DNA of 64,000 nucleotides from Candidatus Harrisonbacteria bacterium (GCA_016214655.1 JACROC010000006.1:21377-85376); one strand, 5' to 3'; positions 16,774 through 33,346 are shown, counted from the stretch's first letter. The notes: generated from the sequence alone by a model not told the origin. Translations and numbers: made by a program.

Positions 16774-17715
16774 ATGCAAAGAGTAAAGATCGCGGGTTTA
16801 GAGGTTGGAGATGGCGCCCCCGTTTTTATGATTGCCGAGATTGGAATTAACCATAATGGCAGTTTAGATGTTGTTAAAAAATTAATTGATGCCGCTGCTG
16901 AAGCGGGGTGTCAAGCGGTAAAGTTCCAAAAGCGCACAATTCCAGTTATTTATTCTGAAGCCGAGCTCCAGAAGCCTCGTGAAGTGCCCGCTGATGTGAT
17001 CGTGCGAGCTCTGAAGAGGGGGGTTCTTTCTAAAGAGGCAGTTGTTCGCCTTGTCGACTCGGATCTTCGGCAGACAACAAATGGCGATTTGAAGCTGGCG
17101 TTGGAGTTGACGGCATCAGAGTATGCCGAAATTGATGTATATTGTAAAACAAAAAACATGCTTTGGTTCGCTTCTCCTTGGGATGAGGATAGCGTTGATT
17201 TTTTGGATCAATTTAATCCCTGTTGTTATAAAGTGGCATCTGCGTCATTAACTGATGACGGATTATTGGAGTATATTCGTTCTAGGGGGTGTCCCGTGAT
17301 TCTTTCAACTGGTATGAGTACTCTTGAGCAGATTGATCATGCGATTGATGTCCTTGGAGAGGATGATCTGGTATTACTGCATTGCGTTTCTACTTATCCA
17401 GCAGAGTACAAAGAACTTAATCTCCGCGTAATTCCGGTTTTAAAAGCAAGATATGATATTCCGGTAGGATATAGCGGTCATGAGCGAGGTATCCATTCGT
17501 CAGCTCATGCAGTTGCGTTAGGCGCTTGTGCAGTCGAAAGACATGTGACCCTTGATCGTATAATGTGGGGTAGTGATCAGGCTGCTAGTATTGAGCCGAA
17601 AGGATTGGAGTCATTAGTAAAAGAGATTCGTCATTTAGAGGAGGCATTGGGAGATGGAGAGAAGCGATTACTTGATTCAGAAGTTCCTATTATGAAGAAA
17701 CTGCGACGGAAATAA
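16774..17715 (+). CDS. neuB: NeuB-family nonulosonic acid (sialic-acid-type) synthase, no SAF domain
   Basis: APVFMIAEIGINHNGSLDVVKKLIDAAAEAGCQAVKFQKRT... is the NeuB/PseI/SpsE TIM-barrel signature. 313 aa, ends before any SAF domain. Carries a ~45-aa insert after KFQKRT. RBS gaggagg upstream. Confidence 0.75.
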   Translation: MQRVKIAGLEVGDGAPVFMIAEIGINHNGSLDVVKKLIDAAAEAGCQAVKFQKRTIPVIYSEAELQKPREVPADVIVRALKRGVLSKEAVVRLVDSDLRQTTNGDLKLALELTASEYAEIDVYCKTKNMLWFASPWDEDSVDFLDQFNPCCYKVASASLTDDGLLEYIRSRGCPVILSTGMSTLEQIDHAIDVLGEDDLVLLHCVSTYPAEYKELNLRVIPVLKARYDIPVGYSGHERGIHSSAHAVALGACAVERHVTLDRIMWGSDQAASIEPKGLESLVKEIRHLEEALGDGEKRLLDSEVPIMKKLRRK

Positions 17716-17726
17716 AGATGTACACC

Positions 17727-17753
17727 GCCGGATTATCTGATCCGGCTTTTTTA
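17727..17753 (+). terminator. rho-independent terminator after the NeuB-like gene
   Basis: gccggat-tatctg-atccggc hairpin followed by ttttttattt. Confidence 0.55.
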
Positions 17754-17754
17754 T

Positions 17755-17783
17755 TTGCTAAATATCAATTTTTGTGTTAGATT
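17755..17783 (+). promoter_or_regulatory. candidate sigma70-type promoter for the SDR/oxidoreductase genes
   Basis: TTGCTA - 17 nt - (TGt)TAGATT, about 35 nt upstream of the ATG at 17819 with RBS ggaggg. By-eye match only. Confidence 0.25.
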
Positions 17784-17818
17784 GCTTCTAGTTTCCTTGA
17801 GAAGTCAATGGAGGGAAG

Positions 17819-18556
17819 ATGCAAAATCTCTTTTCTTTAAATGGGAAAGTGATAATTCTTACTGGCGGCAGCGGGTTTTTGGGATCATATTATATGCGAG
17901 CTTTGCGTGATGCGGGCGCTATCGTTATCGATTGGGATTTGAAATCTGGCATTGATATTACCGATGATCAATCAGTCGCGGCAGCAATTGAGAATGTTTT
18001 GGAGAAATATGGAAGAGTTGATGGATTGGTCAATAATGCGGCGCTGGATGCAAAACCACATTCTGATCCAGCGAGTAATTGGAAGCCGTATGAAGAATTT
18101 CCAATGGATCTTTGGGAGAGAGAATTGGCGGTAAATCTGACGGGTGCAATGAGGGTGACTAAGGTGGTTGTCCCGTACATGATGCGTCAGCGTTTCGGCT
18201 CTATTATTTTTGTAGCTTCTGATTTGGCTTTAATTGCGCCAAATAATTCTATCTACGATGCGGGTCGCTTTAAGGATATTGCTTATATCACTTCAAAGGC
18301 TGGTCTTCTTGGCCTGATGCGAGCATGGGCTTCGCGACTCGGGTCATACAATGTCCGAGTAAATGCGTTCGTCCCCGGCGGAGTTTTTAACGGCCATTCG
18401 GAAGAATTTGTAAAAAAGAATGGGGCGCTTAACATGTTGGGGCGTATGGCTGAGCCAAACGAGTACAGTGGCGCAATTATCTTTTTACTTTCCGATGCCT
18501 CAACATTTATGACTGGTTCATGTATGGTGATGGATGGAGGGAGGACTGCATGGTAA
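17819..18556 (+). CDS. short-chain dehydrogenase/reductase (SDR)
   Basis: TGGSGFLGSYY (TGxxxGxG) and YITSKAGLLGL (YxxxK). Confidence 0.75.
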   Translation: MQNLFSLNGKVIILTGGSGFLGSYYMRALRDAGAIVIDWDLKSGIDITDDQSVAAAIENVLEKYGRVDGLVNNAALDAKPHSDPASNWKPYEEFPMDLWERELAVNLTGAMRVTKVVVPYMMRQRFGSIIFVASDLALIAPNNSIYDAGRFKDIAYITSKAGLLGLMRAWASRLGSYNVRVNAFVPGGVFNGHSEEFVKKNGALNMLGRMAEPNEYSGAIIFLLSDASTFMTGSCMVMDGGRTAW

Positions 18557-18561
18557 ATAAA

Positions 18562-19551
18562 ATGAAGTTCCTTTTGTGCGGAATAGGGTCAATGGGGCAG
18601 AGGCATTTTCGGAATTTGAATGGATTGAGGCAGGAAATTGCACTTTTTCGGTCAAAACAAACAACCACTCCTTTTATTGAAAAGTTTTTTGAGGAGCAAA
18701 GAAAGAAAGGATTATTAATCCCTCTTTTTTATGACCTAGAGCTAGCATTGACAAGTTTTCGGCCGGATGCAGTTGTGGTTGCAAATCCTAATTCTCTGCA
18801 TATGCCCATTTCGTTGGCTGGCGCAAGAGCTGGTTGCCATCTTTTTATTGAAAAGCCAGTTTCCCATACGATGGATCAGATGGACGAATTGACAGAATTA
18901 CTCAAGAAGAAGAATTTAATTGCAATGGTCGGCTATAATCTTCGGTTTCATCCGCTTTTACAATTGATGAAAAGGATGTACGAATCCGGAGAAATCGGGC
19001 GCGCTGTATCTGTCCATGTTGAAGTTGGAGAAAATATTGAGGATTGGCATCCGTGGGAAGATTATAGAGACGCATACGCATGCTGGAAAAGCGGCGGTGG
19101 CGGAGTAACGTTATGTTTTAGCCACGACATAGATTATCTTTATTGGTTTTTTGGAATGCCAGAACGCGTGCAGGCTATTGGGGGTAAAAAGGCTCCGCTT
19201 GGCGGAGATGCCGAGGATACTATAAAGGCACTTATGGAATTTCGCGGCGGGCTAATTGCCTCGCTCCACATGGATTATTGGCAGAGACCAAAAAAGCGGA
19301 CATTTGAAATTATAGGAACACTTGGAAGGATGATGTGGGATTGCGGCGCAGGGACATTGGTGCTGGAAAAAAGAGATCTAATCAAAAAAACTTTTGACGT
19401 CCCAAAGAATTTCGATAGGAATGATATGTTTATTTCTGAGATGAAAAATTTTATTTTATCCGCAGAAAATAAAGAAAATCTACTTATTCCATTTGAAGAA
19501 GGGGTTGATGTTCTTAGGATTTGTATTGACATTAAGAAAAAAATTTATTAA
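18562..19551 (+). CDS. Gfo/Idh/MocA-family NAD(P)-dependent oxidoreductase
   Basis: MKFLLCGIGSMGQRHFRNL Rossmann N-terminus and the family-typical EKP motif (LFIEKPVSHT). ATG at 18562 just after the SDR stop. Confidence 0.7.
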   Translation: MKFLLCGIGSMGQRHFRNLNGLRQEIALFRSKQTTTPFIEKFFEEQRKKGLLIPLFYDLELALTSFRPDAVVVANPNSLHMPISLAGARAGCHLFIEKPVSHTMDQMDELTELLKKKNLIAMVGYNLRFHPLLQLMKRMYESGEIGRAVSVHVEVGENIEDWHPWEDYRDAYACWKSGGGGVTLCFSHDIDYLYWFFGMPERVQAIGGKKAPLGGDAEDTIKALMEFRGGLIASLHMDYWQRPKKRTFEIIGTLGRMMWDCGAGTLVLEKRDLIKKTFDVPKNFDRNDMFISEMKNFILSAENKENLLIPFEEGVDVLRICIDIKKKIY

Positions 19552-19560
19552 ATATATATT

Positions 19561-19590
19561 TCCGTGTTACGTAGACACGGATTTTTTTTT
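19561..19590 (+). terminator. rho-independent terminator
   Basis: tccgtgt-tacgtag-acacgga perfect 7-bp stem followed by T9. Confidence 0.6.
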
Positions 19591-19607
19591 GAATTATCAT
19601 TAAAAAA

Positions 19608-20624
19608 ATGAATTATTACGAAATACAAAATCAATCCAGGAAATTGCTTTCTTGGTTTTTAGATATAAGATCGAAAATCCTTGATTTAGATGGAGAGCAC
19701 CGTGTTTATGAAATTGCCGAAATTATAGCTTGTAATTATAGAAATTTAAATATTAATTTTCCTAAAAATGAAGTCATTGTAAGCGCTCCTCAAATTACAA
19801 ATAATTATTTTAATAATGATTCGGAATATAGGAAGCCTGTTAAGGATTTATTTAATCTAGTAAACAGGGAGCTCTCTCCATTTGTCAGTCAATTTTATTT
19901 ACACGGTAGCTTAGCTACCGAAGATTATAAAAAGGGATGGAGCGATTTAGATACATTTATGGTTATTAATGGGGAGGTTGTATTAGACGCGAAAAAGCTA
20001 ATTAAACTTCGAGAAATATGTTTTAATGCCTGGCCGATATTTTTGGAAATTACCCCATTACAGCATCACGGATTTATAATCATTACTGAGCTTGATACAA
20101 AATGTTATTCTAATTCTTTTTTACCAACGGAAGTATTTAAGTTGTCACTAGCTATGAAAAATAACCAGCCAACGCTTAAATTGTTAATTCGGGACGATGA
20201 TGGGTTGTCTAAAAATTTATTATTAAATAGATTAGAGCTTGCTCGTGAATCGGCGAATGAAGGAATTTTTAAATATCATCCACACAATGGGAAATATCTT
20301 TTATCTGAATTTCGTAATGCAAACGATTCAATGCATCAACTGTTTTCATTTTTAGGAAATAATATGAATGCTCCAATTTATTTTTTAGATTCTATTGGGA
20401 AAGGCTGTCATAAAAAAGAATCTTTTTTAAGAGCGCGATCATATTTTTCGGATGAGGCCTGGAGCGTTATTGACAAAGCAAGTATTATCAGGGATTTATG
20501 GCCAGATAAGGAAGGTCAAAGATACAGAGGTAATGCGATTCCGAAGTGGGTTATGGAAATTTTAGGGAAAAATTATATTAAGGAAGCCGTTACTTTGTGG
20601 GAAGAAGCGGTTAGTAATGTTTAA
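19608..20624 (+). CDS. uncharacterized protein with polymerase-beta-type nucleotidyltransferase-fold motif (possibly LicD/fukutin-like phosphotransferase)
   Basis: hG[ST]-x10-[DE]h[DE]h pattern: LHGSLATEDYKKGWSDLDTFMVI. No other recognisable domain. 338 aa. Confidence 0.3.
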   Translation: MNYYEIQNQSRKLLSWFLDIRSKILDLDGEHRVYEIAEIIACNYRNLNINFPKNEVIVSAPQITNNYFNNDSEYRKPVKDLFNLVNRELSPFVSQFYLHGSLATEDYKKGWSDLDTFMVINGEVVLDAKKLIKLREICFNAWPIFLEITPLQHHGFIIITELDTKCYSNSFLPTEVFKLSLAMKNNQPTLKLLIRDDDGLSKNLLLNRLELARESANEGIFKYHPHNGKYLLSEFRNANDSMHQLFSFLGNNMNAPIYFLDSIGKGCHKKESFLRARSYFSDEAWSVIDKASIIRDLWPDKEGQRYRGNAIPKWVMEILGKNYIKEAVTLWEEAVSNV

Positions 20625-20636
20625 AAATGAAATATT

Positions 20637-21695
20637 ATGAATAAAAAATTTGTTAATCCACCGCCTCGCAATATTAGTTTGGCGAAATATGATGCTGCCC
20701 ACAAAGAGCTTATCGAAGTCTTTTCGCAGTTTACGGATGTTGCGGCTTTGTATGATTATGGCACCGTCCATAATCCCGGCATTAGCGACCTCGATATTTT
20801 TCTGATTTTAAAGGGTGATTTGCATTCTTCGAAGGCAGAAGACTATCTTATTAGTGAAAAGAAATTTCCCCATACATATTCTCTTCCCCGAGGCACATTA
20901 ATGGTTATGAATGTTGGTGATTTTCAAGGGGTTCACTGGTTTGACGATCAAATTAAACTAAGCCATTTTTTTGGAGATAAAATTATATTGCAGGATATAG
21001 ATCTAGAAATGCAACGGCAGAGATTTTTTGCAAGTATTATTGATTGGCTGCCAGAGCGTTTAGGTGCCTTAGTCCGCTTACTACAGAAATCGGAAATCGA
21101 CATAGTATTTTCGCTACGCGTATTGAGGTGTTATTGTTATACGTTGGAAAAATTATACAAACTTACCAAGGGTTCTCAATATCAGGAATTTGTTAATCGA
21201 GTTTTGGATTTAAGAAACCATTGGAATGACGGAAGAGAAAAAGAATTAGTTGAATTAATACGTGGAGGAATCGTATTAGGATGTAAAGCGCTTTTAGATG
21301 TTTCGGATACGATTCTAAAAAATGAAGAAGGAGCTGTTGGTGAATTATCTTTATATCCCGATCTGAGATTTCATTTTATTGATAATGCGCAACTATTATC
21401 TGCTCAATGGATTTTGTCCAATTTGCATCCATCGAGTATTGTTATCCCGGTTCCGAGCACATATGCCCCGCATTTTTCTTTTTATAGCCAGCAGCCGGGA
21501 TTTCTAGCGGAACAAATGCGTCGGCAAATGAATATGTCGTTGATGCTTCAACCGAAGAGTGAATTATATAGAAAATTTTTAGCTAAGAAAATCGGATTGG
21601 CAACTCGTGCCGGAGAATTTTTGCTTCGCAATGGATTTAAGGACGGGCTTTTTCGTTTTGGGTTCTATTTTAAAAATTATTTGAATAATTTTTAA
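20637..21695 (+). CDS. uncharacterized nucleotidyltransferase-fold protein, distant paralog of the preceding gene
   Basis: YDYGTVHNPGISDLDIFLIL shows the same G[ST]...SDLD-hydrophobic-strand pattern. 352 aa. Confidence 0.3.
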   Translation: MNKKFVNPPPRNISLAKYDAAHKELIEVFSQFTDVAALYDYGTVHNPGISDLDIFLILKGDLHSSKAEDYLISEKKFPHTYSLPRGTLMVMNVGDFQGVHWFDDQIKLSHFFGDKIILQDIDLEMQRQRFFASIIDWLPERLGALVRLLQKSEIDIVFSLRVLRCYCYTLEKLYKLTKGSQYQEFVNRVLDLRNHWNDGREKELVELIRGGIVLGCKALLDVSDTILKNEEGAVGELSLYPDLRFHFIDNAQLLSAQWILSNLHPSSIVIPVPSTYAPHFSFYSQQPGFLAEQMRRQMNMSLMLQPKSELYRKFLAKKIGLATRAGEFLLRNGFKDGLFRFGFYFKNYLNNF

Positions 21696-22407
21696 AATTC
21701 TGTTCGGCGATCTTGAGATCTTTATACGTATCGATATCAACAAATTTTTCCTTTGGCATAATAAACCCACATACTTTGCTTCCCCACACCCTCCCCCCTT
21801 TTATATATTTGGCTTTTGTGGCATATATTAATCCAACTTGTAAATAATATCGCGGAAGCATTTGTCTGGGTACATCAGTTCCTAGTTTTCTGTAGTTTGT
21901 GGTTGGTAAGAGCGCTTTCATGCGACCACTTTTACCATGAGGCAGTGTCCACATCTTGAATGGATTGTAGGGACTAGGATCAATTATTGTTCTTATAGAT
22001 TCACATTTATGTCGATGCATGAATGTAAGAACATTATCAATGTCTTTTCCTGTTCTAAATGGTGATGTTGGTTGAAGTATGACGATAATATCGGGATCCC
22101 ATCCTCGATTTTTTTGAAGCCACTGTAGCGCATGGGCCAAAAAGTCAATATCTTTTGATTTATCACCAGCTAATCTTTTGGGGCGGAGGAACGGGACGTC
22201 GGCTTTATATTTTTTTGCTACCCTGGCAATTGCGGGATCATCGGTTGACACCATGAATGTATCTAGTAGTTTAGATTGTTGTGCGGCGCGGATAGTATAA
22301 TAAATTAGAGGTTTTCCGTGTAGGGGAATAATATTTTTATGAGGTATTCCCTTTGATCCGCCGCGTGCAGGAATGATTCCGACTATTTTTATCTGACTTT
22401 TTTTCAT
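21670..22407 (-). CDS. neuA: acylneuraminate (CMP-nonulosonic acid) cytidylyltransferase
   Basis: KIVGIIPARGGSKGIPHKNIIPLHGKPLIYYTIRAA...STDDPAIARVAKKYKADV, the CTP_transf_3 signature. Confidence 0.8.
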   Translation of the reverse strand: MKKSQIKIVGIIPARGGSKGIPHKNIIPLHGKPLIYYTIRAAQQSKLLDTFMVSTDDPAIARVAKKYKADVPFLRPKRLAGDKSKDIDFLAHALQWLQKNRGWDPDIIVILQPTSPFRTGKDIDNVLTFMHRHKCESIRTIIDPSPYNPFKMWTLPHGKSGRMKALLPTTNYRKLGTDVPRQMLPRYYLQVGLIYATKAKYIKGGRVWGSKVCGFIMPKEKFVDIDTYKDLKIAEQNFKNYSNNF

Positions 22408-22492: not shown

Positions 22493-23809
22493 ATGACTAT
22501 TTTTATCACTAGTTTTCAATCGCTTATTTCACGGAATATTTTAGGAACTCCACTACTTTCATTTTTGAAAAGTAACAATGTGCAAGTGGTGCTTTTGGTT
22601 CCTCAAAAAAAGAAAGATTTTTTTGAAGAAGAATTCAGAGAATTTGAAGTTGTTGTAGAGAGTATTGATACAAAGTTGCAATGGCAAGATAAATTTTTAC
22701 GCTATCTATTTCTTACAGCGCTTAAGACGCGTACTTTAGACATCAAGCGGGAAACAGAAATGAAGGGAAGCGGGAAATGGCTTAAGGTTATTATTAGAAA
22801 TAGTAGCATAGGACGGAAGATGTTGCGATGGCTAAATGCGATTTTGACCCCACGCAATACATTTAAAGATTCATTTCAAAAGTATAATCCTGATTTAGTA
22901 TTTTCAACTGATGCACAAAATGAAATAGATGTCAGGTTGCTCTTGGATGCAAAAAGGAATGGCGTGAGCACGATCGGCATGGTTCGATCATGGGATAATC
23001 TTACCGCTAAGGGCGTGATTCGGGTTATCCCGGATTTGTTAGCGGTTCATAATGAAATTCTTAAAGAAGAAGCTATAACTCTTCATGGAATTCCGGAAGA
23101 AAGGATAAAGATTATCGGCATTCCGCACTACGATCGATATTTTCAGGGCTCGCATTCCAGCCGGGAGGAATTTATGAAACGAATCGGTGCTAATCCCCAA
23201 AAGAAATTAATATTATTTGCGCCTACCGGCGATCGGTATATCGGTGAAAATACAGTTGATAAAGAAGTGTTGGAGATTTTGGATAAAAATATCGGAGAAG
23301 AATACCAGATTTTGGTGCGTTTTCCGCCGGCTGATACGGTATCAGGCCTGGATGGCCGGGAAAACAACAGCCGTTTTATTTTTGACCGGCCGAGCAGGCG
23401 ATTTAAAGTATTAAAAAATACCGAACTTACCAAAGAAGAAGACGCGCATCTGGTAGATTCGATTTATTGGAGCGATTTGATAATCGCAGGCCCATCTACG
23501 CTCTGTGTTGATGCGGCAGTTTTCAACAAGCCGATAGTGCTGGTTGGATTTGATGGCTATGAAAAGCGCCCATATTATCAAGGTATCCGCCGATATTATG
23601 ATTACAATCATTTTGATCCGATACTTAAAAGCGGAGGAGTAAAATTAGCAGAGAATGCAGAGGCGTTAGCTAAATCTGTAAAGGCTTATTTGCAAAATCC
23701 ATTTCTGGATGAACAGGGGAGGCGAGCGATTGTCCGGCAAGAATGTTGGAATACGGATGGGAAAGCAACGGAGCGGCTGGCAAATTCGTTAATTTCCGCA
23801 CTTAAATAG
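22493..23809 (+). CDS. TagF/TagB-like glycerophosphotransferase-family protein (paralog 4)
   Basis: YNPDLVFSTDAQNEIDVRLLLDAKRNGVSTIGMVRSWDNLTAKG, KLILFAPTGDRY, AGPSTLCVDAAVFNKPIVLVGFDGY, and C-terminal RQECWNTDGKATERL. Confidence 0.5.
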   Translation: MTIFITSFQSLISRNILGTPLLSFLKSNNVQVVLLVPQKKKDFFEEEFREFEVVVESIDTKLQWQDKFLRYLFLTALKTRTLDIKRETEMKGSGKWLKVIIRNSSIGRKMLRWLNAILTPRNTFKDSFQKYNPDLVFSTDAQNEIDVRLLLDAKRNGVSTIGMVRSWDNLTAKGVIRVIPDLLAVHNEILKEEAITLHGIPEERIKIIGIPHYDRYFQGSHSSREEFMKRIGANPQKKLILFAPTGDRYIGENTVDKEVLEILDKNIGEEYQILVRFPPADTVSGLDGRENNSRFIFDRPSRRFKVLKNTELTKEEDAHLVDSIYWSDLIIAGPSTLCVDAAVFNKPIVLVGFDGYEKRPYYQGIRRYYDYNHFDPILKSGGVKLAENAEALAKSVKAYLQNPFLDEQGRRAIVRQECWNTDGKATERLANSLISALK

Positions 23810-23851
23810 CATTTTCTAGGGCATCGGAATTATGTTAAGATAAACCTGTTT

Positions 23852-24562
23852 ATGAAAACGCTTTCTGTTGTGATTCCGGTATACAATGAAAAAAATACAA
23901 TTCACAATGTTCTTTCGGCGGTAGAGAAATCGGATATCGGCAACATCGAGAAAGAGATTATCATTGTGGATGATTGTTCCGCTGACGGTACGCGCGAGAT
24001 TTTGGCTGAACTGGAAAAGCAGAAGAAATATAAAATCTTGTATCAGGAGAAAAACATGGGCAAGGGCGCGGCGCTTCGCCGCGGGTTTTCGTCGGTTACC
24101 GGCGATTTTATAATTATCCAGGATGCAGATTTGGAATATGATCCGGCGGAATACGGCACAATGCTGAAGCCGCTCTTGGATGGCCGCGCCGATGTAGTTT
24201 ACGGTTCCCGTTTTTTTGGCGGAGAAAAAACTGTGCACCGCGCATTATTTTTTTGGCATTACTTGGGAAATAGATTTATTACTTTTGTCTCAAATCTTTT
24301 TACCAATCTTAATCTCACCGATATGGAGACCGGTTATAAGGCATTTACAAAATCGGCCATTGAGAAGATCGTCCCGCATTTGGAATCAAATCGTTTTGGC
24401 ATAGAGCCGGAAATTACCGCCTATGCGGCAAAAAACCGTTTGCGCGTTTACGAAGTCGGCATTTCGTATTCCGGAAGGACCTATGAAGAAGGAAAAAAAA
24501 TAAATTGGAAAGACGGTATTGCGGCGATTTGGTTCATAGTGAAATATAATTTACTGAAATAA
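23852..24562 (+). CDS. GT2-family polyprenyl-phosphate glycosyltransferase (DPM1/GtrB/ArnC-like)
   Basis: [14 protein letters not shown]...[12 protein letters not shown]...[10 protein letters not shown] (the DxD and acceptor motifs). 236 aa, soluble-type DPM1-like. Confidence 0.8.
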
Positions 24563-24564
24563 AT

Positions 24565-26214
24565 ATGGCTTTTGGAATTTTTACAAAATTTTCGGTGTTG
24601 CCGGTACTGCTCCAAAAAATATTTTTGCTGCAATTTCCTAATATATATACGCAGCACAACTTTATTATTTTAATTGAATCGCTGGTCTATATTTATGCTT
24701 CTTTTTTGGCGGGATCGTTTTTGTTGAGGAAAATGGGGCTTGACCTGAATTCCCGATTGAAACAGGCTGCCTATTCGGTAATGAGCGGATATGCCATTTT
24801 TGGTCTCTGGGGATTGGTTTTGGCCGCATCCGGATTATTTGAGCCGATGTATTTAAGGATGTTTTTGGTTTTGGCTGTTCTTGGTTCGGCGGGAACTATC
24901 GCAAAGCAGGGGATGGAAATCTGGAAGGCGGATTATTCAAAAGAGAGAATAACCCGTTTTCTGAAAACGATAGCAGACAGTTCATTAATTTTGAAATTAC
25001 TTATTGCGCTTTGGATAGCTGCCAATTTTGCCATTGTACTTGTGCCGATAACTGGCCATGATACGCTGCATTATCATCTTCCGATTATGGCGAATTTAAT
25101 TAGCGAGGGAAGGATGAATTTTGATACTGCTTTGCCGAGCAGATTTTTGCCGATTTTCGGAGAGATTATCTATGCGGTGCCAATGGCGATTTTCAGCAAT
25201 CTTACGGAACCATTTGTGTTCCAGGTGATGCAGTACAGCTTTTTGATTTTATTTGCGATTTTGATATACGAATTTTTGAAACCGCGTATTTCCAATCAAT
25301 TCTTGGGTCTTGCGGCAGTATTGCTTTTATTCTCAATTATGGATTTTCAGCGTGAGATTATGCACGGCGGATACATAGATGTATTGGCATTTCTATTTGG
25401 CAGCGCTAGCACTCTGCTTTTGATTGAAAACTGCTGCGAGGTGAATATGCGGCCTAGAGAAGTGATGCTTTCCGCGCTGATGCTCGGGGTTGCGCTCGGC
25501 GTTAAATATCTTGCATTGGTTTTTGCGGCAATCAACTTTTTATTTTTATTGGTGATGTTTTGGCGGCAGAAGGTAAATTATGGCGTTATAGCAAGGTGGC
25601 TGGCAGGATATGGGCTTATCATATTTGCCGTGTCGGGGTTTTGGTATTTAAAAAATGCGATTTTCTTTGGAAGCCCTATTTACCCGATGTTTTCTAACAA
25701 ATTGTTTACCTCGCAGGTAAATGTGTTTCTTTTAGACAGGACGGTACTTAATTTTTTCTGGTTTCCGTTTTATCGGTACGGACAGTGGTTTGTCCAGGAT
25801 GTGGAGACCTCCAGCCGTCTTGTGGTGCTGGGATATTTTATTGCCGCATATCTTTTATTCGCGATTTTCTTTTTCAGTAAAAAACTGCGTTGCGCAGAAA
25901 CGCTTTTATTCGTTTTTGTGCAATTATATCTTTTGTTTTTGTTTTTTATGTCCCATCAATATCGGTTCTTACTTCCTTCTAATATCATGCTGGTTCCGCT
26001 TTTGATCTTATTTATTGACCAGGTGTATCAATTTTTAAAAACAAAACTTTTTGAAAATCCATATTCTATTTTTGTCAGAGCATCTTTTTGGGCGATGAGT
26101 ATAGGTTTTGCACTGTTATTCCTCGCCAACACTCATTATTTATACGCTAAATTTTCGTATGCGACTGGCGTGTATGACCAGGATGAATACAGAAGCGAGA
26201 TTGGCGGGTTCTAG
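24565..26214 (+). CDS. polytopic membrane protein, putative GT-C-type glycosyltransferase (GT39/GT83-like) partnered with the upstream GT2
   Basis: 549 aa and more than 12 hydrophobic segments. Acidic/His loop (GHDTLHYH) after TM helices 3-4. Gene order GT2 then large membrane protein is typical of polyprenyl-P-sugar donor/GT-C pairs. No diagnostic motif confirmed. Confidence 0.3.
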   Translation: MAFGIFTKFSVLPVLLQKIFLLQFPNIYTQHNFIILIESLVYIYASFLAGSFLLRKMGLDLNSRLKQAAYSVMSGYAIFGLWGLVLAASGLFEPMYLRMFLVLAVLGSAGTIAKQGMEIWKADYSKERITRFLKTIADSSLILKLLIALWIAANFAIVLVPITGHDTLHYHLPIMANLISEGRMNFDTALPSRFLPIFGEIIYAVPMAIFSNLTEPFVFQVMQYSFLILFAILIYEFLKPRISNQFLGLAAVLLLFSIMDFQREIMHGGYIDVLAFLFGSASTLLLIENCCEVNMRPREVMLSALMLGVALGVKYLALVFAAINFLFLLVMFWRQKVNYGVIARWLAGYGLIIFAVSGFWYLKNAIFFGSPIYPMFSNKLFTSQVNVFLLDRTVLNFFWFPFYRYGQWFVQDVETSSRLVVLGYFIAAYLLFAIFFFSKKLRCAETLLFVFVQLYLLFLFFMSHQYRFLLPSNIMLVPLLILFIDQVYQFLKTKLFENPYSIFVRASFWAMSIGFALLFLANTHYLYAKFSYATGVYDQDEYRSEIGGF

Positions 26215-26229
26215 TGTTATATATTGCAT

Positions 26230-27567
26230 ATGATTAAAACGCTTTTTTTAACTATATTTGAAGGGGCAGAGGCGCGGAATCTTTTACGGACTTCAGTGGC
26301 GCCGACGCTATTAAGCGATCCGGAAGTGCGAATTGTGCTTTTTACGAAAAGTCCGGATCGCGTGGAGTATTATAAAAAAGAATTCAGCGATCCGAGATTG
26401 ATCTATGAGGTAGTGGCGCCGATAAAAGTTGAAGGATTAGACAAGTTCTTTGCCTTCTTAAAATTTCTTCTTTTAAAAACCGAAACTACGGATCTCCGGC
26501 GCTCCTCGCGCTTTAGCTTATTTGCCAGCTGGCTCTTGGCCCGGCCCGCAGTAAGGAGGATGGTCCGATTTCTGGATTATCATTTGGTGAGAAATTCCGC
26601 GTATAGCCGCTATTTTGACGCTTATAAACCGGACGCGGTTTTGCTTGCCCATTTATTTGATGAACCAGAGATTCATCTTTTGCGCGAGGCAAAAAAGCGC
26701 AGAGTAAAGACGATCGGATTTGTAAATTCGTGGGATAAGGTTACGGCCCGCTGTATCCTGCGCTTGCTGCCCGATAAGGCAGTCGTCTTTAACGATGTCG
26801 TGAAAAAAGAAATGATGGAGCATAATGAAATGGCGGAAAAAGATATTTTTGTTAGCGGCCTGCCCCAATACGATAGTTATTTTATGGATAAAAATTACAC
26901 TTCGCGGGAAGTTTTTTTTAATAAATTAAATCTTGATCCGAGGAAAAAATTAATCGTCTACGCGCCGCTGGGCCGCACCTGTGGCGAATCTGACTGGGAT
27001 ATAATCGATCTTTTATATCGTCTCCGTGACAGCGGAAGATTCGGCGATGGCGCGGATTTACTTGTCCGGTTCCAGCCCAATGATTTCTTGGATGAGGCAG
27101 AATTGAAAAAGCGGCCACATCTTAAGTATGATTATCCGGGCACCCGTTTTTCTTCGACGCGCGGCATAGACTGGGATATGAATGCCGAGCACTTGAAGCA
27201 TTTAAGGGACACGCTTCATCATATGTCGCTTTTGGTATGTTACGCGTCTAGCGTCAGCATTGATGCGGCGATTTTTGATAAACCGATTATTAACATTAAT
27301 TTTGAAACCCGGAAACCGGATTCTTTTGAAGAGTCTTCAACTAAATATTATTCGTTCACTCATTACAAAAAAGCGCTGGCTACGGGAGGAATCCGCCTGG
27401 CGAGCAGCGAGGAAGAATTGGTTGCAGCAATTAAGGAATACCTTGCTGATTCTTCGCCTGATCGCGAAGGCAGGAAGAGATTGGTGCGCGAACAATGCCA
27501 ATTTGTTGACGGTAAAGCCGGCGAGAGGATTGGTAAATTTATACTAGAGCCATTTAAGACCCAATGA
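26230..27567 (+). CDS. TagF/TagB-like glycerophosphotransferase-family protein (paralog 5)
   Basis: YKPDAVLLAHLFDEPEIHLLREAKKRRVKTIGFVNSWDKVTAR, KLIVYAPLGRT, ASSVSIDAAIFDKPIININFE, C-terminal REQCQFVDGKAGERI. ATG at 26230. Confidence 0.5.
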   Translation: MIKTLFLTIFEGAEARNLLRTSVAPTLLSDPEVRIVLFTKSPDRVEYYKKEFSDPRLIYEVVAPIKVEGLDKFFAFLKFLLLKTETTDLRRSSRFSLFASWLLARPAVRRMVRFLDYHLVRNSAYSRYFDAYKPDAVLLAHLFDEPEIHLLREAKKRRVKTIGFVNSWDKVTARCILRLLPDKAVVFNDVVKKEMMEHNEMAEKDIFVSGLPQYDSYFMDKNYTSREVFFNKLNLDPRKKLIVYAPLGRTCGESDWDIIDLLYRLRDSGRFGDGADLLVRFQPNDFLDEAELKKRPHLKYDYPGTRFSSTRGIDWDMNAEHLKHLRDTLHHMSLLVCYASSVSIDAAIFDKPIININFETRKPDSFEESSTKYYSFTHYKKALATGGIRLASSEEELVAAIKEYLADSSPDREGRKRLVREQCQFVDGKAGERIGKFILEPFKTQ

Positions 27568-27626: not shown

Positions 27627-28256
27627 ATGAATACACATAATATATTTGAACATAAGCAGGGGGCGGAGCATATTGCAACGCCGGTTTCAATTTATATGGT
27701 CAAGCGTCTTTCTAGGAAGTGTAAACACATCTTAGAAATAGGAGGGGGAATTGGTACTTTGACATACTCAATTTTATCTGAGAGCGAGAGCCAAGTTGAT
27801 GTGTATGAAGATAATGATTTTTGTATTAATGAATTAAAAAAAAATCTCGCCGAGTTATCGGAGAGATACACGCTTTTGGATGATTGTACCCAATCACCTC
27901 CACGAATTGATTATGATCTTGTGATTATTGATGGGGGACAGGGCGGCTATGATTGTGGTTATCCTGGCATGACGGAGAATATCTTTACATTTGTTAAACC
28001 CACCTTTGTATATTTTGAAGGAGTACGAAGAAAACAAAGGCGGACCACCCTTAGGGTTCTTAGGAATCGCTATACGATAAAAATTTACCGAATTCCATTC
28101 TATTTTTATCAAGATCGTTTATACAAAGGCGGAACCCTTATGAGGTGTTATGTGTGTAATTCGTTTGTCAAACGGTGGGTGAATTATATACTGAACACAA
28201 TATACGAGTCGCAGTATACGGAAAAATTCTTTGGTAGGATAAAACCGCCTGTATAA
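27627..28256 (+). CDS. hypothetical protein, possible small SAM-dependent methyltransferase
   Basis: Motif-I-like ILEIGGGIGTLTYS followed by the acidic VYEDN and DLVIIDGG. Weak. Confidence 0.3.
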   Translation: MNTHNIFEHKQGAEHIATPVSIYMVKRLSRKCKHILEIGGGIGTLTYSILSESESQVDVYEDNDFCINELKKNLAELSERYTLLDDCTQSPPRIDYDLVIIDGGQGGYDCGYPGMTENIFTFVKPTFVYFEGVRRKQRRTTLRVLRNRYTIKIYRIPFYFYQDRLYKGGTLMRCYVCNSFVKRWVNYILNTIYESQYTEKFFGRIKPPV

Positions 28257-28265
28257 TAAATCTCT

Positions 28266-29279: not shown

Positions 29280-29384
29280 ATTTTAAGGGGAAACCGGGTC
29301 ATATTTTGCGGGGTTGTATATAGATACAAACCCGATATTTATTTGTCAAAGTGAGTAATTTATTGTATCTTATTAAGGTTCGTA

Positions 29385-30566
29385 ATGTCCCTAAAAATCA
29401 TGAAAAAAACAGCTAAACGCAAAATTTGTTTCCCGATAATGAATAAGATCCATTATGCCCGGCAGAAGCATCTTTTGACGCTTTTAAAAAATCATCCGAA
29501 GGCGGATCTTCAAATCGTTGCCGGAGGATCGGTGTTGCTGGAAAAATACGGTGAACGGTTTTTATCCGCAATCCAAGATGCCGGATTTACCGTGCAGGAT
29601 ACGCTCTATAATGTCATTGATGGCGGAAGCCATATTTCGATGGCAAAAACTGCTGGTTTAACTGCGCTGGAGTTTTCCAATTCTCTATATAAATTGAATC
29701 CGGACGTGGTGCTGATCCGCGGCGATCGTTTTGAGCAATTAGCAATTGCAATGACTGCCGCATATTTGAATAAAACTATTGCGCATATTGAAGGCGGGGA
29801 TGTGAGCGGGACGATTGACGAAAGCGTGCGCCATGCGATCACGAAATTGGCGCATATTCATTTTGTGACTAATGAAGACGCGCGCAAGCGGGTGATTCAG
29901 ATGGGAGAGAATCCCAAAATGGTTTTTAATGTCGGATCTCCGGATGCGGAGTTCGCGGCTTCGGTTGATAAAAAATTGGATGGCAGCGCGGTAAATCGAA
30001 TTGGCATCGGTGAAGAAATTGATTTAAGTAAACCGTTTTTGATGGTGATGCAGCATCCAGTCACAACGGAAAAGAATAACCGCGAGCATATGGAATTGAC
30101 GCTGAAAGCGGTGAATGAATTGAATATGCCGGCGATCTGGTTTTGGCCGAACAGCGATGCCGGGACAAATGAAATTTCCAAGGCAATCCGCGATTACCGT
30201 GAATCAGGAAAACTGACCAATGCGCAGGTAAGATTCGTGACTGATTTATTGCCAGAAGATTTTATTGCTTTATTGCGCCGCGCAAGTGTTCTGATCGGCA
30301 ATTCTTCGGCGGGCATTAAAGAATGTTCATATTTAGGTGTGCCGGTGGTGAACATCGGTACCCGGCAGAATAATCGTTTGCGCGGCCAGAACGTGCTGGA
30401 TGTAGGTTATAGCGTGAATGCGATTAAAAAGGCTATTCAGTCGCAGCTTGAGCACGGTAAATATCAGAGCTCGGATCTTTACTATAAACCGGACGGAAGT
30501 AAAAAAATGGCGGAAATTTTAACCACCGTTCCGCTTTATTCACAAAAGAAGTTCTACAATGTCTAA
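29385..30566 (+). CDS. neuC: UDP-N-acetylglucosamine 2-epimerase, NeuC-like (hydrolysing type)
   Basis: Epimerase_2 fold with HIEGGDVSGTIDESVRHAITKLAHIHFVTNE (compare the HxEGG motif of hydrolysing NeuC/SiaA). Confidence 0.7.
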   Translation: MSLKIMKKTAKRKICFPIMNKIHYARQKHLLTLLKNHPKADLQIVAGGSVLLEKYGERFLSAIQDAGFTVQDTLYNVIDGGSHISMAKTAGLTALEFSNSLYKLNPDVVLIRGDRFEQLAIAMTAAYLNKTIAHIEGGDVSGTIDESVRHAITKLAHIHFVTNEDARKRVIQMGENPKMVFNVGSPDAEFAASVDKKLDGSAVNRIGIGEEIDLSKPFLMVMQHPVTTEKNNREHMELTLKAVNELNMPAIWFWPNSDAGTNEISKAIRDYRESGKLTNAQVRFVTDLLPEDFIALLRRASVLIGNSSAGIKECSYLGVPVVNIGTRQNNRLRGQNVLDVGYSVNAIKKAIQSQLEHGKYQSSDLYYKPDGSKKMAEILTTVPLYSQKKFYNV

Positions 30567-31278
30567 GGTTCTTGGGGTTATTACTGCGCGAGGCGGTTCC
30601 AAGGGAGTTCCCGGGAAAAATATTAAATTATTATCAGGAAAGCCGCTTATTGCATATACTATCGCAGCCGCCAAAAATTCTGGCATTTTGGACAGGCTGA
30701 TTTTATCTACCGACGATTCCAGTATTGCGGCGGTTGCAAAAAAATGCGGCTGTGAAGTGCCGTTTATGCGGCCGAAAGAAATTGCTCAAGATGAAACCTC
30801 GCATTTGCCAGTAATACAGCATGCGGTCCAGTGGCTTAAAGACAATGAAAATTACTGGCCGGATTATGTGATGATTTTGCAGCCAACTTCGCCTTTGCGG
30901 CAGGCATTCCATATCAAAGAAGCGGCGGATCTTATTGTGAAAAGCGGGGCCGATTCGGTATTAAGCGTAGCGGAGATTCCGGAGAATTTCAGTCCTTATA
31001 AGGCGATGGTCGTGGAGAATGGCGAATTAAGATTGTTCAATGGGAATCCGGTACGGAAACGAATGGCGCGCCGGCAGGATCTCGGAAAAACTTATTGGAG
31101 TATCGGATCAATTTATCTTTTTAGAACCGAATTGCTTTTTGATAAAAATGAGCCGAATTTCTACGGCGATAAAGTTATGCCGTACGTTATTGAAGATAAA
31201 TACCTGGTTGATATTAATGTTCCGGAAGATTGGGAAAAAGCCGAAAGAGCCCTTAATAATCTAAACCCTAAACCCTAA
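30559..31278 (+). CDS. neuA: acylneuraminate (CMP-nonulosonic acid) cytidylyltransferase
   Basis: VLGVITARGGSKGVPGKNIKLLSGKPLIAYTIAAA...STDDSSIAAVAKKCGCEV. Confidence 0.8.
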   Translation: MSKVLGVITARGGSKGVPGKNIKLLSGKPLIAYTIAAAKNSGILDRLILSTDDSSIAAVAKKCGCEVPFMRPKEIAQDETSHLPVIQHAVQWLKDNENYWPDYVMILQPTSPLRQAFHIKEAADLIVKSGADSVLSVAEIPENFSPYKAMVVENGELRLFNGNPVRKRMARRQDLGKTYWSIGSIYLFRTELLFDKNEPNFYGDKVMPYVIEDKYLVDINVPEDWEKAERALNNLNPKP

Positions 31279-31292
31279 ACCCTATTTTATCC

Positions 31293-32228
31293 ATGGTTAC
31301 TCTCATTACCGAACCAAAAGATTATTCTGAAAAAGCTCTAGATATTTATCGATCAATGGGGAGGGTTTATTTTGGCGGGACGCCAAGAGAAGATGCGGAG
31401 ATTTTAGTAGTTCGTCTCGGTTATAAAATTGACAGGCTTTGGATGGATAAAGTGCCGAATCTAAAGATAATTGCCACGCCGACGACTGGATTGAATCATA
31501 TTGATTTGAAGGAGGCGGAAAAACGCGGCATAAAAATAATTTCTTTGCGCGGGCACACCGGTTTTTTGAGCCGTATTACTTCTACCGCCGAAGAGACGTT
31601 GGCCTTGATGTTGGCTTTGGTGCGGAAATTGCCCTGGGCTTTTGATGATGTGAAAAGGGGAAACTGGAATCGGGATGCATTTAAGGGTCATCAATTAGCG
31701 GAAAAAACTTTGGGCATTTTAGGTCTTGGTCGTTTAGGGAAGATAATGGCGAGATATGGCCAGGCGCTCGGCATGCGAGTGATCGCATCGGATCCAAATG
31801 TCGGTGTTGATGAAATGAAGCAGTTGGGAGTTGAGCGCGTTGCAATGGAAGAACTTTTCCGCTTGTCGGATGTGCTTTCGATTCATGTATTGTTAACTGA
31901 TGAAACTAAAAATTTAGTTAAGGAACATCATTTGAAGTTAATGAAGCCTGAAGCGGTATTGATTAATACGGCCAGGGCGGAAATTATTGAGAAGGGCGCA
32001 TTGGAAAAAGCATTAAAAGAGAAATGGATTGCCGGCGCGGCAGTGGACGTCATGTGGGATGAGCAGGGTAATGGCGGGCATCTGAAAAATAACGAACTTC
32101 TAGAATACGCAAAAAATAACAACAATCTTTTAATTTCCCCGCATTTTGGCGGAGCCACCTATGAAGCCATGCAGATTACGGAGGAGTTCATTGCCGATTT
32201 GGTAAAAAAAGAATCAGCCAAATTATGA
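31293..32228 (+). CDS. D-isomer-specific 2-hydroxyacid dehydrogenase-family protein (NAD-binding)
   Basis: LGILGLGRLGKIMARYGQALGMRVIASDP (GxGxxG) plus the catalytic-domain arrangement of PGDH/formate-DH-like enzymes. Confidence 0.7.
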   Translation: MVTLITEPKDYSEKALDIYRSMGRVYFGGTPREDAEILVVRLGYKIDRLWMDKVPNLKIIATPTTGLNHIDLKEAEKRGIKIISLRGHTGFLSRITSTAEETLALMLALVRKLPWAFDDVKRGNWNRDAFKGHQLAEKTLGILGLGRLGKIMARYGQALGMRVIASDPNVGVDEMKQLGVERVAMEELFRLSDVLSIHVLLTDETKNLVKEHHLKLMKPEAVLINTARAEIIEKGALEKALKEKWIAGAAVDVMWDEQGNGGHLKNNELLEYAKNNNNLLISPHFGGATYEAMQITEEFIADLVKKESAKL

Positions 32229-33346
32229 CCGCATCCGAAAAAATTTGGGAGAAAATAGAAAAAGGGGTATTTATTATTGCTGAAGCAGGCAAGAATTTTA
32301 TTCAAACCGCGGATGACCGGCTGGTGGAAGAATATTTGAAAAACGCGAAAGAATTAGTCGATCGGGCGGTCTGGGCCGGCGCGGACGCAATTAAATTTCA
32401 AACCCATAGCGTTGAAGATGAGCAATTAAATATTGAAATTGTTTCACCCCATTTTAAAGGATTAGACCGGTATCAATGGGTGCGCCGGAATACTTTGGCA
32501 ACGCCGGTAAATGAATTTTGGCGGCCATTAAAGGATTACTGCGAACAGAAAGGAATTGTGTTTTTCTCGACGCCCATGAGCCGCGGCGCCGCCATGCGGC
32601 TTTCCGAAGTCGGGGTTCCGCTTTGGAAGATCGGCTCCGGAGATATATTGGATTTTGTGTGCATGGATTATCTGCGCGCCACGGATATTCCGGTTATTAT
32701 GTCTTCCGGCATGAGTACGCTGGAGGAAGTCCGGAAAGGAATTGATTTTTTGCGCGCGAAAAATCCGCGCGTAGCCCTTATGCATGCGTTATCAAAATAC
32801 CCCGGTCTTCCGGAGGAGGCGAATCTGGCAGTCATGCAGTTATTCCAAGAAAGTTTTCCAGGAGTTCCGATTGGGTTCTCTGAAAATTCTGTAGGTATTG
32901 AGCCGTCACTGCTTGCAGTTGCCTTAGGAGCGACGATTATTGAAAAGCATTTTACTTTACGGCGCGATTTATGGGGTTCAGATCACAAAGTTTCTTCCAC
33001 GCCGGAAGAATTTAAGGAATTGGTCGCGGCAATTAGAAAAATCGAAAATAGTTCGGAAGAAAAGGATCGCTGGATAAATTATCCGAACCTTTCCGCAGTA
33101 CTCGGAAAGAAAGAAAAAATTCTTCAAAAAGACGAGGCGGAATTCAGGCCGATTTTCAGGAAATCGCTGATGGCTGGGATGGATCTTACGGCGGGAACGG
33201 TATTAGAACCGAAAATGCTTTATGCGATGCGCCCGCAAAAGTATGCCGGCGGGCTGCCGTCGGAAGATTATGAAGAAGTTCTTGGAAAGCGGATTAAAAT
33301 TCCGTTAAAAAAATTTGACCCGATTACCAAAATGGTATTAGAATAA
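32225..33346 (+). CDS. neuB: NeuB-family nonulosonic acid synthase with C-terminal SAF domain
   Basis: FIIAEAGKNFIQ...AGADAIKFQTH... TIM-barrel plus a C-terminal SAF-like segment (LMAGMDLTAGTVLEPKMLYAMRP). Confidence 0.8.
   Translation: MTASEKIWEKIEKGVFIIAEAGKNFIQTADDRLVEEYLKNAKELVDRAVWAGADAIKFQTHSVEDEQLNIEIVSPHFKGLDRYQWVRRNTLATPVNEFWRPLKDYCEQKGIVFFSTPMSRGAAMRLSEVGVPLWKIGSGDILDFVCMDYLRATDIPVIMSSGMSTLEEVRKGIDFLRAKNPRVALMHALSKYPGLPEEANLAVMQLFQESFPGVPIGFSENSVGIEPSLLAVALGATIIEKHFTLRRDLWGSDHKVSSTPEEFKELVAAIRKIENSSEEKDRWINYPNLSAVLGKKEKILQKDEAEFRPIFRKSLMAGMDLTAGTVLEPKMLYAMRPQKYAGGLPSEDYEEVLGKRIKIPLKKFDPITKMVLE

Follow-up and report, generated by a model that had tools for sequence, protein, structure and literature searches.

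A surface-glycan locus of Candidatus Harrisonbacteria with two NeuB/NeuA modules, one of them built around a SAF-less NeuB-family synthase

We analyzed a 64,000-nucleotide stretch of DNA from a Candidatus Harrisonbacteria bacterium (GCA_016214655.1 JACROC010000006.1:21377-85376), here called the window and numbered from its first nucleotide. A glycan-biosynthesis locus spans positions 1-39400 of the window (~39 kb), and inside it, within 16774-34308, lie two modules that together encode NeuB-family synthases and NeuA-type cytidylyltransferases, two of each. We estimate a probability of about 0.6 that this interval holds the genes for two independent routes, which lead to different 3-deoxy-2-ulosonic acids, each activated with cytidine monophosphate (CMP), for a surface glycan. 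An earlier note, made from the sequence alone, had proposed two distinct modules for two different acid sugars, and the proposal is supported by the divergence of their components: the two NeuBs are 30% identical and are parted by a tree split with 83.5% support, and the two NeuAs are 36% identical. Simple duplication of NeuB was rejected on the same identity and tree split. The domain content, the non-orthology of the synthases, the affinities of their families and the neighborhood statistics are observed; the substrates, the order of the steps and the transferases are inferred. We regard the window as probably holding a real two-pathway locus of a poorly known lineage, for which the comparison of gene neighborhoods would give the family of the NeuB that lacks a C-terminal SAF domain (NeuBd) a specific hypothesis of function; the gene neighborhood is also the strongest evidence for that function. 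The cell-surface chemistry of the candidate phyla radiation (CPR)/Patescibacteria is almost wholly uncharted, and a literature search for nonulosonic acids in Patescibacteria gave no papers. Because CPR bacteria live attached to host cells, acidic, sialic-acid-like surface sugars would bear on attachment and recognition.

The genes of the two modules are listed here.

Module 1
16774..17715, plus strand: SAF-less NeuB-family synthase (NeuBd), 313 amino acids (aa); Pfam NeuB PF03102, 254 bits, no SAF
17819..18556, plus strand: short-chain dehydrogenase/reductase (SDR) oxidoreductase; Pfam adh_short_C2
18520..19551, plus strand: Gfo/Idh/MocA oxidoreductase; Pfam GFO_IDH_MocA N- and C-terminal domains
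21670..22407, minus strand: NeuA-type CMP-ulosonate synthetase; PF02348 CTP_transf_3

Module 2
29385..30566, plus strand: NeuC, hydrolyzing UDP-GlcNAc 2-epimerase; TIGR03568, 358.9 bits, cutoff 235.9
30559..31278, plus strand: NeuA-type CMP-ulosonate synthetase; PF02348 CTP_transf_3
31293..32228, plus strand: D-2-hydroxyacid dehydrogenase (2-Hacid_dh)
32225..33346, plus strand: NeuB with SAF (NeuB2), 373 aa; NeuB and SAF domains, 213 bits (NeuB)
33391..34308, plus strand: short dehydrogenase of the UDP-glucose dehydrogenase (UGDH) family; UGDH N-terminal and central domains only
34335..36590, plus strand: Wzy_C (O-antigen ligase/O-oligosaccharyltransferase-like) protein with TPR repeats

The Pfam domains bear out the order of module 1 given in the earlier note, namely a NeuB at 16774 with a NeuB domain only, followed by the SDR and the Gfo/Idh/MocA oxidoreductase, with the cytidylyltransferase on the opposite strand. 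The genes that it named for module 2 are likewise present, but its end point for that module, 33346, falls short, as the UGDH-like open reading frame (ORF) lies just outside.

Placement and structure of the SAF-less synthase

We placed the two NeuBs in a neighbor-joining tree (273 columns, 200 bootstraps) with few references: four chains from the PDB, extracted from HMMER alignments, five vertebrate N-acetylneuraminate-9-phosphate synthases (NANS), and the 3-deoxy-D-glycero-D-galacto-non-2-ulosonic acid (Kdn) 9-phosphate synthetase of Prymnesium parvum, its sequence from the supplement of PMC6200933; BT1714 and LegI were left out. One side of the 83.5% split holds the NeuBd family, SAF-less paralogs, the five NANS and the Prymnesium enzyme, and the other holds NmNeuB, CjPseI, BsSpsE, the Leptospira NeuB 6ncs and the NeuB2 family. 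The NeuBd and NeuB2 clades have support of 98.5% and 100%, respectively, so that the window's copies stand in separate clades and not in one orthologous clade. Consistent with this placement, vertebrate NANS is the highest-scoring characterized homolog of NeuBd in BLAST comparisons (180 bits, 37% identity), ahead of Leptospira 6ncs (155 bits) and NmNeuB (107 bits), and a family member from Mycobacterium seoulense matches NANS at 229 bits and 43% identity.

The motifs KFQK(R) and G-x-SGH and a C-terminal tail of the form E-x-P/L-x(3)-KL are common to NeuBd, NANS and the Prymnesium enzyme, which is specific for mannose-6-phosphate (Man-6-P), whereas canonical free-sugar enzymes carry KxQ[TMA]x and SDH at the KFQK(R) and SGH positions. 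By its grouping and its motifs alike, NeuBd would belong with the phosphosugar-dependent synthases (NANS, Kdn-9-phosphate synthase). NANS is co-linear with NeuBd up to the linker that precedes its AFP/SAF domain, to which the NeuBd-type tail corresponds; NANS continues into that domain, whereas NeuBd breaks off at the linker and contains a helical insertion of 25 aa. The Prymnesium synthase is itself SAF-less (312 aa) and has the KFQKR, GxSGH and KVxSxS motifs and the C-terminal tail in common with NeuBd, but it is just 30% identical to it, and the product in the window may not be Kdn. The Leptospira protein, a bacterial NeuB whose structure has been solved, likewise lacks SAF and is a top match of NeuBd both by sequence and by Foldseek; it differs in having SDH, not SGH, and KFQAY, not KFQKR, and in its place among the canonical enzymes in the tree. 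Bacterial NeuB cannot do without an arginine of the SAF domain, R314, where eukaryotic NANS has Val (PMC8208679). Because the Prymnesium enzyme lacks SAF and NANS has Val in place of R314, independence of SAF seems to go with the use of phosphosugars.

NeuBd retains the catalytic residues E22, K50, Q52, H236, E255, H257 and D268, as well as the equivalents of all the NmNeuB residues compared (E25, K53, Q55, K129, S132, S154, Y186, S213, H215, E234, H236, D247), and it continues for 16 residues past the NeuB domain and closes with the conserved tail ...EVPIMKKLRRK. The insertion after KFQKRT, put at ~45 aa in the earlier note, is shorter: it amounts to 25 aa relative to non-CPR family members and to ~37 aa relative to Leptospira 6ncs. 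It is CPR-specific, covers residues 71-100 (PRE, 30 aa, then TTNGDLK in the window; PRE, SPFGV, then TNGDLK in non-CPR members), and, in an AlphaFold model of NeuBd with a confidence (pLDDT) of 95.4, forms a pair of confidently predicted helices (73-82 and 87-95). NeuBd scores below the equivalog cutoffs of both TIGR03569 (NeuB_NnaB; 248.6 versus 399.65 bits) and TIGR03586 (PseI; 215 versus 340.25 bits). Foldseek ranks NeuB, PseI and SpsE structures on top (E of 1e-24 to 1e-27), with synthases of 3-deoxy-D-arabino-heptulosonate 7-phosphate (DAHP) and 3-deoxy-D-manno-oct-2-ulosonate 8-phosphate (KDO8P) far weaker (E of 1e-9 to 1e-14, 11-17% identity). We found no Pfam or NCBIfam match of NeuBd to DAHP_synth_1. 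With a Pfam NeuB match and only distant fold similarity to these enzymes, a DAHP or KDO8P synthase identity was rejected for NeuBd. The earlier note had named two outcomes that would count against it, such an identity and a common orthologous clade for the two NeuBs. Neither was found, because the tree and the identities separate the copies and both Foldseek and Pfam favor NeuB.

The earlier note also called the SAF-less NeuB atypical, which overstates the case because SAF-less NeuBs are common and the family is huge. About 30% of bacterial NeuB-family sequences lack SAF, a feature common in environmental bacteria and read as lifestyle-linked only (PMC8208679). NeuBd has more than 8000 relatives in databases and is encoded in at least 597 stretches of GTDB species-representative genomes. 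The family is conserved at 50-68% identity across phyla, and a record from Nonomuraea contains a homolog that is 49% identical. To our knowledge, no bacterial member of this SAF-less family has been assayed. That NeuBd could be a decaying, non-functional remnant of a NeuB duplication might be suggested by its missing C-terminal domain and by the inverted orientation of its partner cytidylyltransferase, which sits beside an insertion. Such decay is nevertheless very improbable, given that the catalytic residues are all invariant, that hundreds of full-length orthologs with 50-83% identity stop at the same conserved tail, that the model is confident (pLDDT 95.4), and that the two NeuB copies are just 30% identical. 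Pseudogene status was rejected on the invariant residues and the conserved full-length orthologs.

Gene neighborhood of the NeuBd family and candidate pathways

To compare gene neighborhoods, we scored ORFs with phmmer seeds in NeuBd loci (80 from GTDB species genomes and 5 others) and, as a control set, in 44 loci of the SAF-bearing CPR family (NeuB2). A KdsC-family phosphatase is encoded in 50 of 85 NeuBd loci, in 44 of them within 300 bp, and in none of the 44 NeuB2 loci (Fisher's test, P = 9e-13). A GmhA-like isomerase occurs in 25/85 NeuBd loci and in a single NeuB2 locus out of 44 (P = 1e-4). Fusions join the same functions: a SAF-less NeuB is fused to GmhA in P0014 (L002:6076-7695, from a CPR contig, 66% identical to NeuBd) and in P0015, and KdsC is fused to GmhA in a metagenome-assembled genome of Polyangiaceae (L036:14385-15542). 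The cluster-associated GmhA matches Burkholderia GmhA at 197 bits, and, judged by this similarity, the linked isomerase would be essentially a true GmhA. Of 86 NeuBd loci, 33 encode an SDR and 19 a Gfo/Idh/MocA oxidoreductase, and 14 loci have both together with a CTP_transf_3 cytidylyltransferase, as in the window.

We propose that NeuBd condenses phosphoenolpyruvate (PEP) with a phosphorylated aldose of manno configuration. One candidate is Man-6-P, which would yield Kdn-9-phosphate (C9) and for which a pool should exist because the window encodes a GDP-mannose dehydratase. The other is D-glycero-D-manno-heptose-7-phosphate, which would yield a C10 acid and is favored by the GmhA fusions. 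Arabinose-5-phosphate (C8) is disfavored because both cytidylyltransferases are NeuA-like and not KdsB-like. The phosphate would be removed next, as is presumably done in relatives by the KdsC-type phosphatase, for which the window has no gene; the SDR and the Gfo/Idh/MocA enzyme might, at a guess, tailor the sugar by redox chemistry, and the NeuA-type enzyme would activate it with CMP. Such a scheme has precedents. The Kdn route of Bacteroides thetaiotaomicron uses a phosphatase (BT1713), a Kdn-9-phosphate synthase (BT1714) and a CMP-Kdn synthetase (BT1715) (Wagstaff et al. 2018, PMC6200933). Like the proposed module 1, the Kdn route of B. thetaiotaomicron and P. parvum combines a phosphosugar NeuB-family synthase with a phosphatase of the KdsC family and a CMP-synthetase of the NeuA type, the likeness to B. 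thetaiotaomicron being one of pathway description. The cluster in the window differs in having no phosphatase and in adding the SDR and the Gfo/Idh/MocA enzyme, and those of its relatives differ in having GmhA and AP_endonuc_2. The sequence isomerase-synthase-phosphatase in the NeuBd family parallels both KdsD-KdsA-KdsC and this Kdn route. In Leptospira, as in the window, two NeuB/NeuA sets stand in one locus, and a phosphorylated route was proposed (Ricaldi et al. 2012, PMC3438082). Phosphorylated bacterial routes have thus been either shown (B. thetaiotaomicron) or proposed (Leptospira), and the window is a variant of a known theme. Teichulosonic acids of Streptomyces (SCO4873-SCO4882) provide a case of a monoderm wall polymer that contains a deaminated nonulosonic acid, Kdn (PMC11481543, PMC13011467); NeuB homologs of Streptomyces are reported to be SAF-less (PMC8208679), a resemblance to NeuBd by description.

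More tentatively, and with a clearly smaller chance of being right, we suggest for the family as a whole that NeuBd enzymes condense PEP with D-glycero-D-manno-heptose-7-phosphate supplied by GmhA, to give 3-deoxy-dec-2-ulosonic acid 10-phosphate, which is then either activated with CMP or decarboxylated by an enzyme dependent on thiamine diphosphate (ThDP). A NeuA-type cytidylyltransferase occurs in 29 NeuBd loci, and a YerE-like ThDP enzyme beside genes for CDP-3,6-dideoxyhexose occurs in 29 of 85; a single locus combines both fates, so that CMP activation and ThDP-dependent branching appear to be mutually exclusive. If the C10 product is correct, the CMP fate would lead into surface glycans in CPR, Chloroflexi and Polyangia, and YerE-like decarboxylation would lead to very long C-branched dideoxyhexoses in Acidobacteriota and Mycobacterium. 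The gene content of the ThDP-type loci would itself lead one to expect C-branched sugars of great length, with a side chain that comes from the ulosonic acid. In a published scheme, alpha-keto acids are the donors for branched sugars (PMC9306805). NeuBd and KdsC stand beside a YerE-like ThDP enzyme in L001 (M. seoulense), L005, L009, L011, L019-L021 and other loci, and ThDP-type loci also carry Methyltransf_21 and CDP-glucose/E1-type 3,6-dideoxyhexose genes.

Several observations weigh against the phosphosugar route in module 1. Genes for KdsC-like, GmhA-like and AP_endonuc_2 proteins are absent from the 64-kb window, even at E ≤ 1. A KdsC-like gene lies within 10 kb in only 6 of the 29 NeuBd loci of the CMP type, so that support for the phosphatase step is weakest in the very type of cluster found in the window. 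The 30% identity between NeuBd and the Prymnesium enzyme is no higher than that to Leptospira 6ncs or PseI (32-33%), and the supporting tree is a simple neighbor-joining tree with few references and without BT1714 and LegI.

Three other products have to be considered for module 1. If the module followed a diamino pathway of the legionaminic acid (Leg) or pseudaminic acid (Pse) type, its SDR and Gfo/Idh/MocA enzymes would be PtmA/PtmF-like and the precursor genes would lie elsewhere in the genome. Leg clusters do have an SDR, an oxidoreductase and a NeuA-like gene beside NeuB (PtmA, PtmF, LegF; PMC4481668), the SDR of the window weakly matches PRK09186 (122 bits versus a cutoff of 255), PseF is the best-scoring hidden Markov model (HMM) for both cytidylyltransferases, and genes for a DegT-family aminotransferase, a deacetylase and a formyltransferase lie upstream, as in the Leg-like cluster of Kuenenia (preprint 10.64898/2026.04.20.719630). 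Within the 64 kb, however, there is no dehydratase of the PseB/LegB/PglF or Polysacc_synt_2 type and no PseH/LegH acetyltransferase. The DegT protein adjoins a true GDP-mannose 4,6-dehydratase (Gmd) and scores below the cutoffs of PseC (238 versus 423) and LegC (189 versus 420). NeuBd groups with the phosphosugar synthases and not with SpsE or PseI, and the linkage of its family to KdsC and GmhA has no role in a Leg or Pse pathway. We consider a diamino product quite improbable. The earlier note favored a Neu5Ac/Kdn-type over a Pse/Leg-type route on the ground that a PseC/LegC-type aminotransferase is missing; the interval indeed has no aminotransferase, but the only DegT gene (4049-5251) lies elsewhere in the window, and the preference is now supported by the lack of a dehydratase/aminotransferase/acetyltransferase set in the 64 kb.

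NeuBd could instead be a non-orthologous replacement of KDO8P synthase that converts arabinose-5-phosphate and PEP into a CMP-activated, C8 acid resembling Kdo (3-deoxy-D-manno-oct-2-ulosonate), which we hold to be unlikely. The adjacent phosphatases are of the KdsC subfamily (117.5 bits for the neighbor in L002, versus the TIGR01670 cutoff of 106.95), the series isomerase, synthase, phosphatase and cytidylyltransferase mirrors KdsD-KdsA-KdsC-KdsB, a NeuBd-KdsC pair stands among housekeeping genes in Melainabacteria, and a Giovannonibacteria locus (L004) contains a Capsule_synth (KpsC/KpsS-type) gene. Yet the linked isomerase is of the GmhA type and not of the KdsD type, the cytidylyltransferases are ~4 times closer to NeuA than to KdsB, and Patescibacteria are generally held to lack an outer membrane and lipopolysaccharide, which counts against Kdo. 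Among characterized enzymes, those closest to NeuBd produce C9 acids, and arabinose-5-phosphate is not accepted by the Prymnesium enzyme (PMC6200933). There is a similarly small chance that both modules make N-acetylneuraminic acid (Neu5Ac), with module 1 following the animal-like path through N-acetylmannosamine (ManNAc)-6-phosphate and Neu5Ac-9-phosphate for the sake of redundancy or differential regulation. NANS, the top-scoring characterized relative, uses ManNAc-6-phosphate, the NeuB-phosphatase fusion of Leptospira was proposed to work through a phosphorylated route (PMC3438082), and the NeuC of the window could supply ManNAc. A ManNAc kinase of the ROK/NanK type is, however, absent from the window, the two cytidylyltransferases share just 36% identity, and the GmhA linkage would be left unexplained. 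The dedicated SDR and Gfo/Idh/MocA enzymes of module 1 argue for a different final sugar, and the mutually exclusive CMP and ThDP fates argue for a non-amino polyhydroxy acid. 

If two different CMP-activated acids are indeed made, with module 1 using a phosphosugar, this could define a new bacterial pathway to a Kdn-like or ten-carbon ulosonic acid and would correct the blanket annotation "N-acetylneuraminate synthase" on thousands of family members. With a C10 product, these sialic-acid-like sugars of higher carbon number would further form a class not described before, widespread in environmental bacteria.

The cytidylyltransferase of module 1 scores 150.5 bits with the PseF HMM (cutoff 205.7), and 117.8 bits against the CMP-Neu5Ac synthetase 6ifd versus ~32 bits against KdsB. 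A syntenic contig, L003, encodes a NeuB and a NeuA that are 83% and 61% identical to those of module 1, in the order NeuB-SDR-Gfo-NeuA(+)-pyruvyltransferase-TagF-GT2-549-aa membrane protein-TagF. Because the 61%-identical NeuA is co-directional there, the minus-strand orientation of NeuA in the window is a local rearrangement. Two weakly NTP_transf_2-like ORFs (19608..21695) are not found in L003, which has the pyruvyltransferase in their place. The second of these ORFs (20637-21695, plus strand) and NeuA (21670-22407, minus strand) are convergent, and in the region 21667-21698 their overlap of 26 nt spans a perfect palindrome of 15 nt, at the edge of the low-GC (0.358) insertion; both encoded proteins end in ...NNF. 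The Gfo/Idh/MocA ortholog in L003 has 334 aa, and the true start of the gene in the window is probably a few codons 3′ of 18520.

Two further settings of SAF-less NeuB genes were observed. In L068 (Gastranaerophilales, 9995-11381) and ~15 other Melainabacteria loci, an isolated NeuBd-KdsC pair lies among housekeeping genes, with glutamine synthetase, aspartokinase and a FliO-like ORF as neighbors and no cytidylyltransferase within 10 kb. On plasmid pRS11DPr1 of Methylomagnum ishizawai (L169, 4886-10498), a SAF-less NeuB is found with an SDR and a HAD-IIIA hydrolase, in a context that also includes split transketolase/1-deoxy-D-xylulose-5-phosphate synthase-like subunits and a class-III aminotransferase.

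Module 2 and its SAF-bearing NeuB

The cassette NeuC-NeuA-2-Hacid_dh-NeuB(SAF)-short UGDH-Wzy_C/TPR is conserved in CPR metagenome contigs. Across the 44 NeuB2 loci, NeuC is present in 32, the CTP_transf_3 NeuA in 34, 2-Hacid_dh in 24, the short UGDH in 22 and Wzy_C-TPR in 26. NeuC clears the cutoff of its equivalog. The NeuA of this module scores 136.6 bits against 6ifd versus 32-33 against KdsB structures, and 186.3 bits with the PseF equivalog (cutoff 205.7). NeuB2, a member of a CPR-rich clade, falls below the cutoffs of TIGR03569 (243.1 versus 399.65 bits) and of TIGR03586, PseI (181.6 versus 340.25 bits); it has the SAF domain, in which the R314 equivalent, R336, is invariant. Because NeuC is bona fide and the SAF domain of NeuB2 keeps this arginine, module 2 looks, from its sequences, like the bacterial free-ManNAc route. 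NeuC would turn UDP-GlcNAc into ManNAc, NeuB2 would condense ManNAc with PEP, the second NeuA would activate the product, and the 2-hydroxyacid dehydrogenase and the short UGDH might, again as a guess, tailor the sugar. In its NeuC, its NeuB with the SAF arginine and its NeuA-type synthetase, module 2 resembles the canonical NeuC-NeuB-NeuA systems (Neisseria meningitidis SiaA/SiaC/SiaB, Escherichia coli K1), but it has two additional enzymes, the 2-hydroxyacid dehydrogenase and the C-terminally truncated UGDH. The latter still has the GxGxxG motif of its Rossmann fold and its catalytic Cys (GGSCFPKD), but no C-terminal nucleotide-sugar-binding domain. Its short form is conserved, which argues that it is not a pseudogene.

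NeuB2 also departs from canonical NeuB in its active site. The Asn of its residues S219-E220-N221 aligns gaplessly with His215 of NmNeuB, which we take to be a Mn2+ ligand; the other NeuB residues compared are conserved. Among 118 NeuB2 relatives, this position is Asn in 70 and His in 48, in perfect co-variation as SEN or SDH, and the position of His30 is Phe in 118/118. A 9-aa N-terminal insertion is a further difference. In KDO8P synthases, a switch from Cys to Asn marks the metal-independent enzymes, and by analogy the SEN-type NeuB2 may represent a metal-independent subclass of NeuB. Judged from these alignments, the active site of the SAF-bearing copy, with Asn for His at the presumed metal ligand, is more unusual than that of NeuBd.

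Glycan transfer, assembly and other features of the locus

The glycan locus encodes five TagB/TagF-like (Glyphos_transf) paralogs with 24-31% identity (7422-8804, 10179-11531, 14488-15855, 22493-23809 and 26224-27567), and no obvious gene for CDP-glycerol or CDP-ribitol synthesis was found alongside them in the locus. In Tannerella, genetic evidence has established TagB-like enzymes of the GT-B fold as the Pse/Leg transferases (PMC5420450), and by this precedent the transfer of CMP-ulosonates is a plausible role for the five paralogs. In other phyla, TagF-like genes are found together with those for NeuA and NeuB, and the block TagF-GT2-549 aa-TagF (22493..27567) is kept in L003; a search of the TagF-like protein against PDB sequences gave no match at E ≤ 0.01. 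We propose that the TagB/TagF-like enzymes probably transfer the CMP-sugars and that the Bac_transf protein, the flippases and the Wzy_C-TPR protein would assemble and export the glycan by lipid-linked assembly and ligation, with the Wzy_C/TPR protein (34335..36590) as the probable final transfer step. For assembly, the locus has two Wzx-type flippases, the Wzy_C/TPR protein and a Bac_transf initiating transferase; it also encodes glycosyltransferases (GT) of classes GT4, GT9 and GT2, an RmlD-like reductase and several methyltransferases.

The genes between the main components of the two modules are the following.

19608-20624 and 20637-21695, plus strand: two weakly NTP_transf_2/Pol-beta-like ORFs (E of 4.7e-6 and 0.07; GC 0.358)
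22493-23809, plus strand: TagB/TagF-like GT-B (Pfam)
23852-24562, plus strand: GT2 (Pfam)
24565-26214, plus strand: 549-aa polytopic membrane protein (hydropathy)
26224-27567, plus strand: second TagB/TagF-like GT-B of the 22493..27567 block (Pfam)
27627-28256 and 28266-29279, plus strand: two SAM-dependent methyltransferases

Upstream of module 1, the true Gmd gene and the adjoining DegT gene form a pair within 3030-5251, and genes for serine hydroxymethyltransferase, a polysaccharide deacetylase and a formyltransferase lie at 11452-14454. Taken together, the Gmd/DegT pair and these three genes point to an amino sugar that is N-formylated: a perosamine-like one or, in line with the proposal for Kuenenia, an N-formyl ulosonic acid. 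On the 3′ side of the glycan locus, positions 42829-47046 encode a 1405-aa protein with lamin-tail (LTD) domains, which is preceded by a PaaX-like ORF and thioredoxin/DsbA-like genes.

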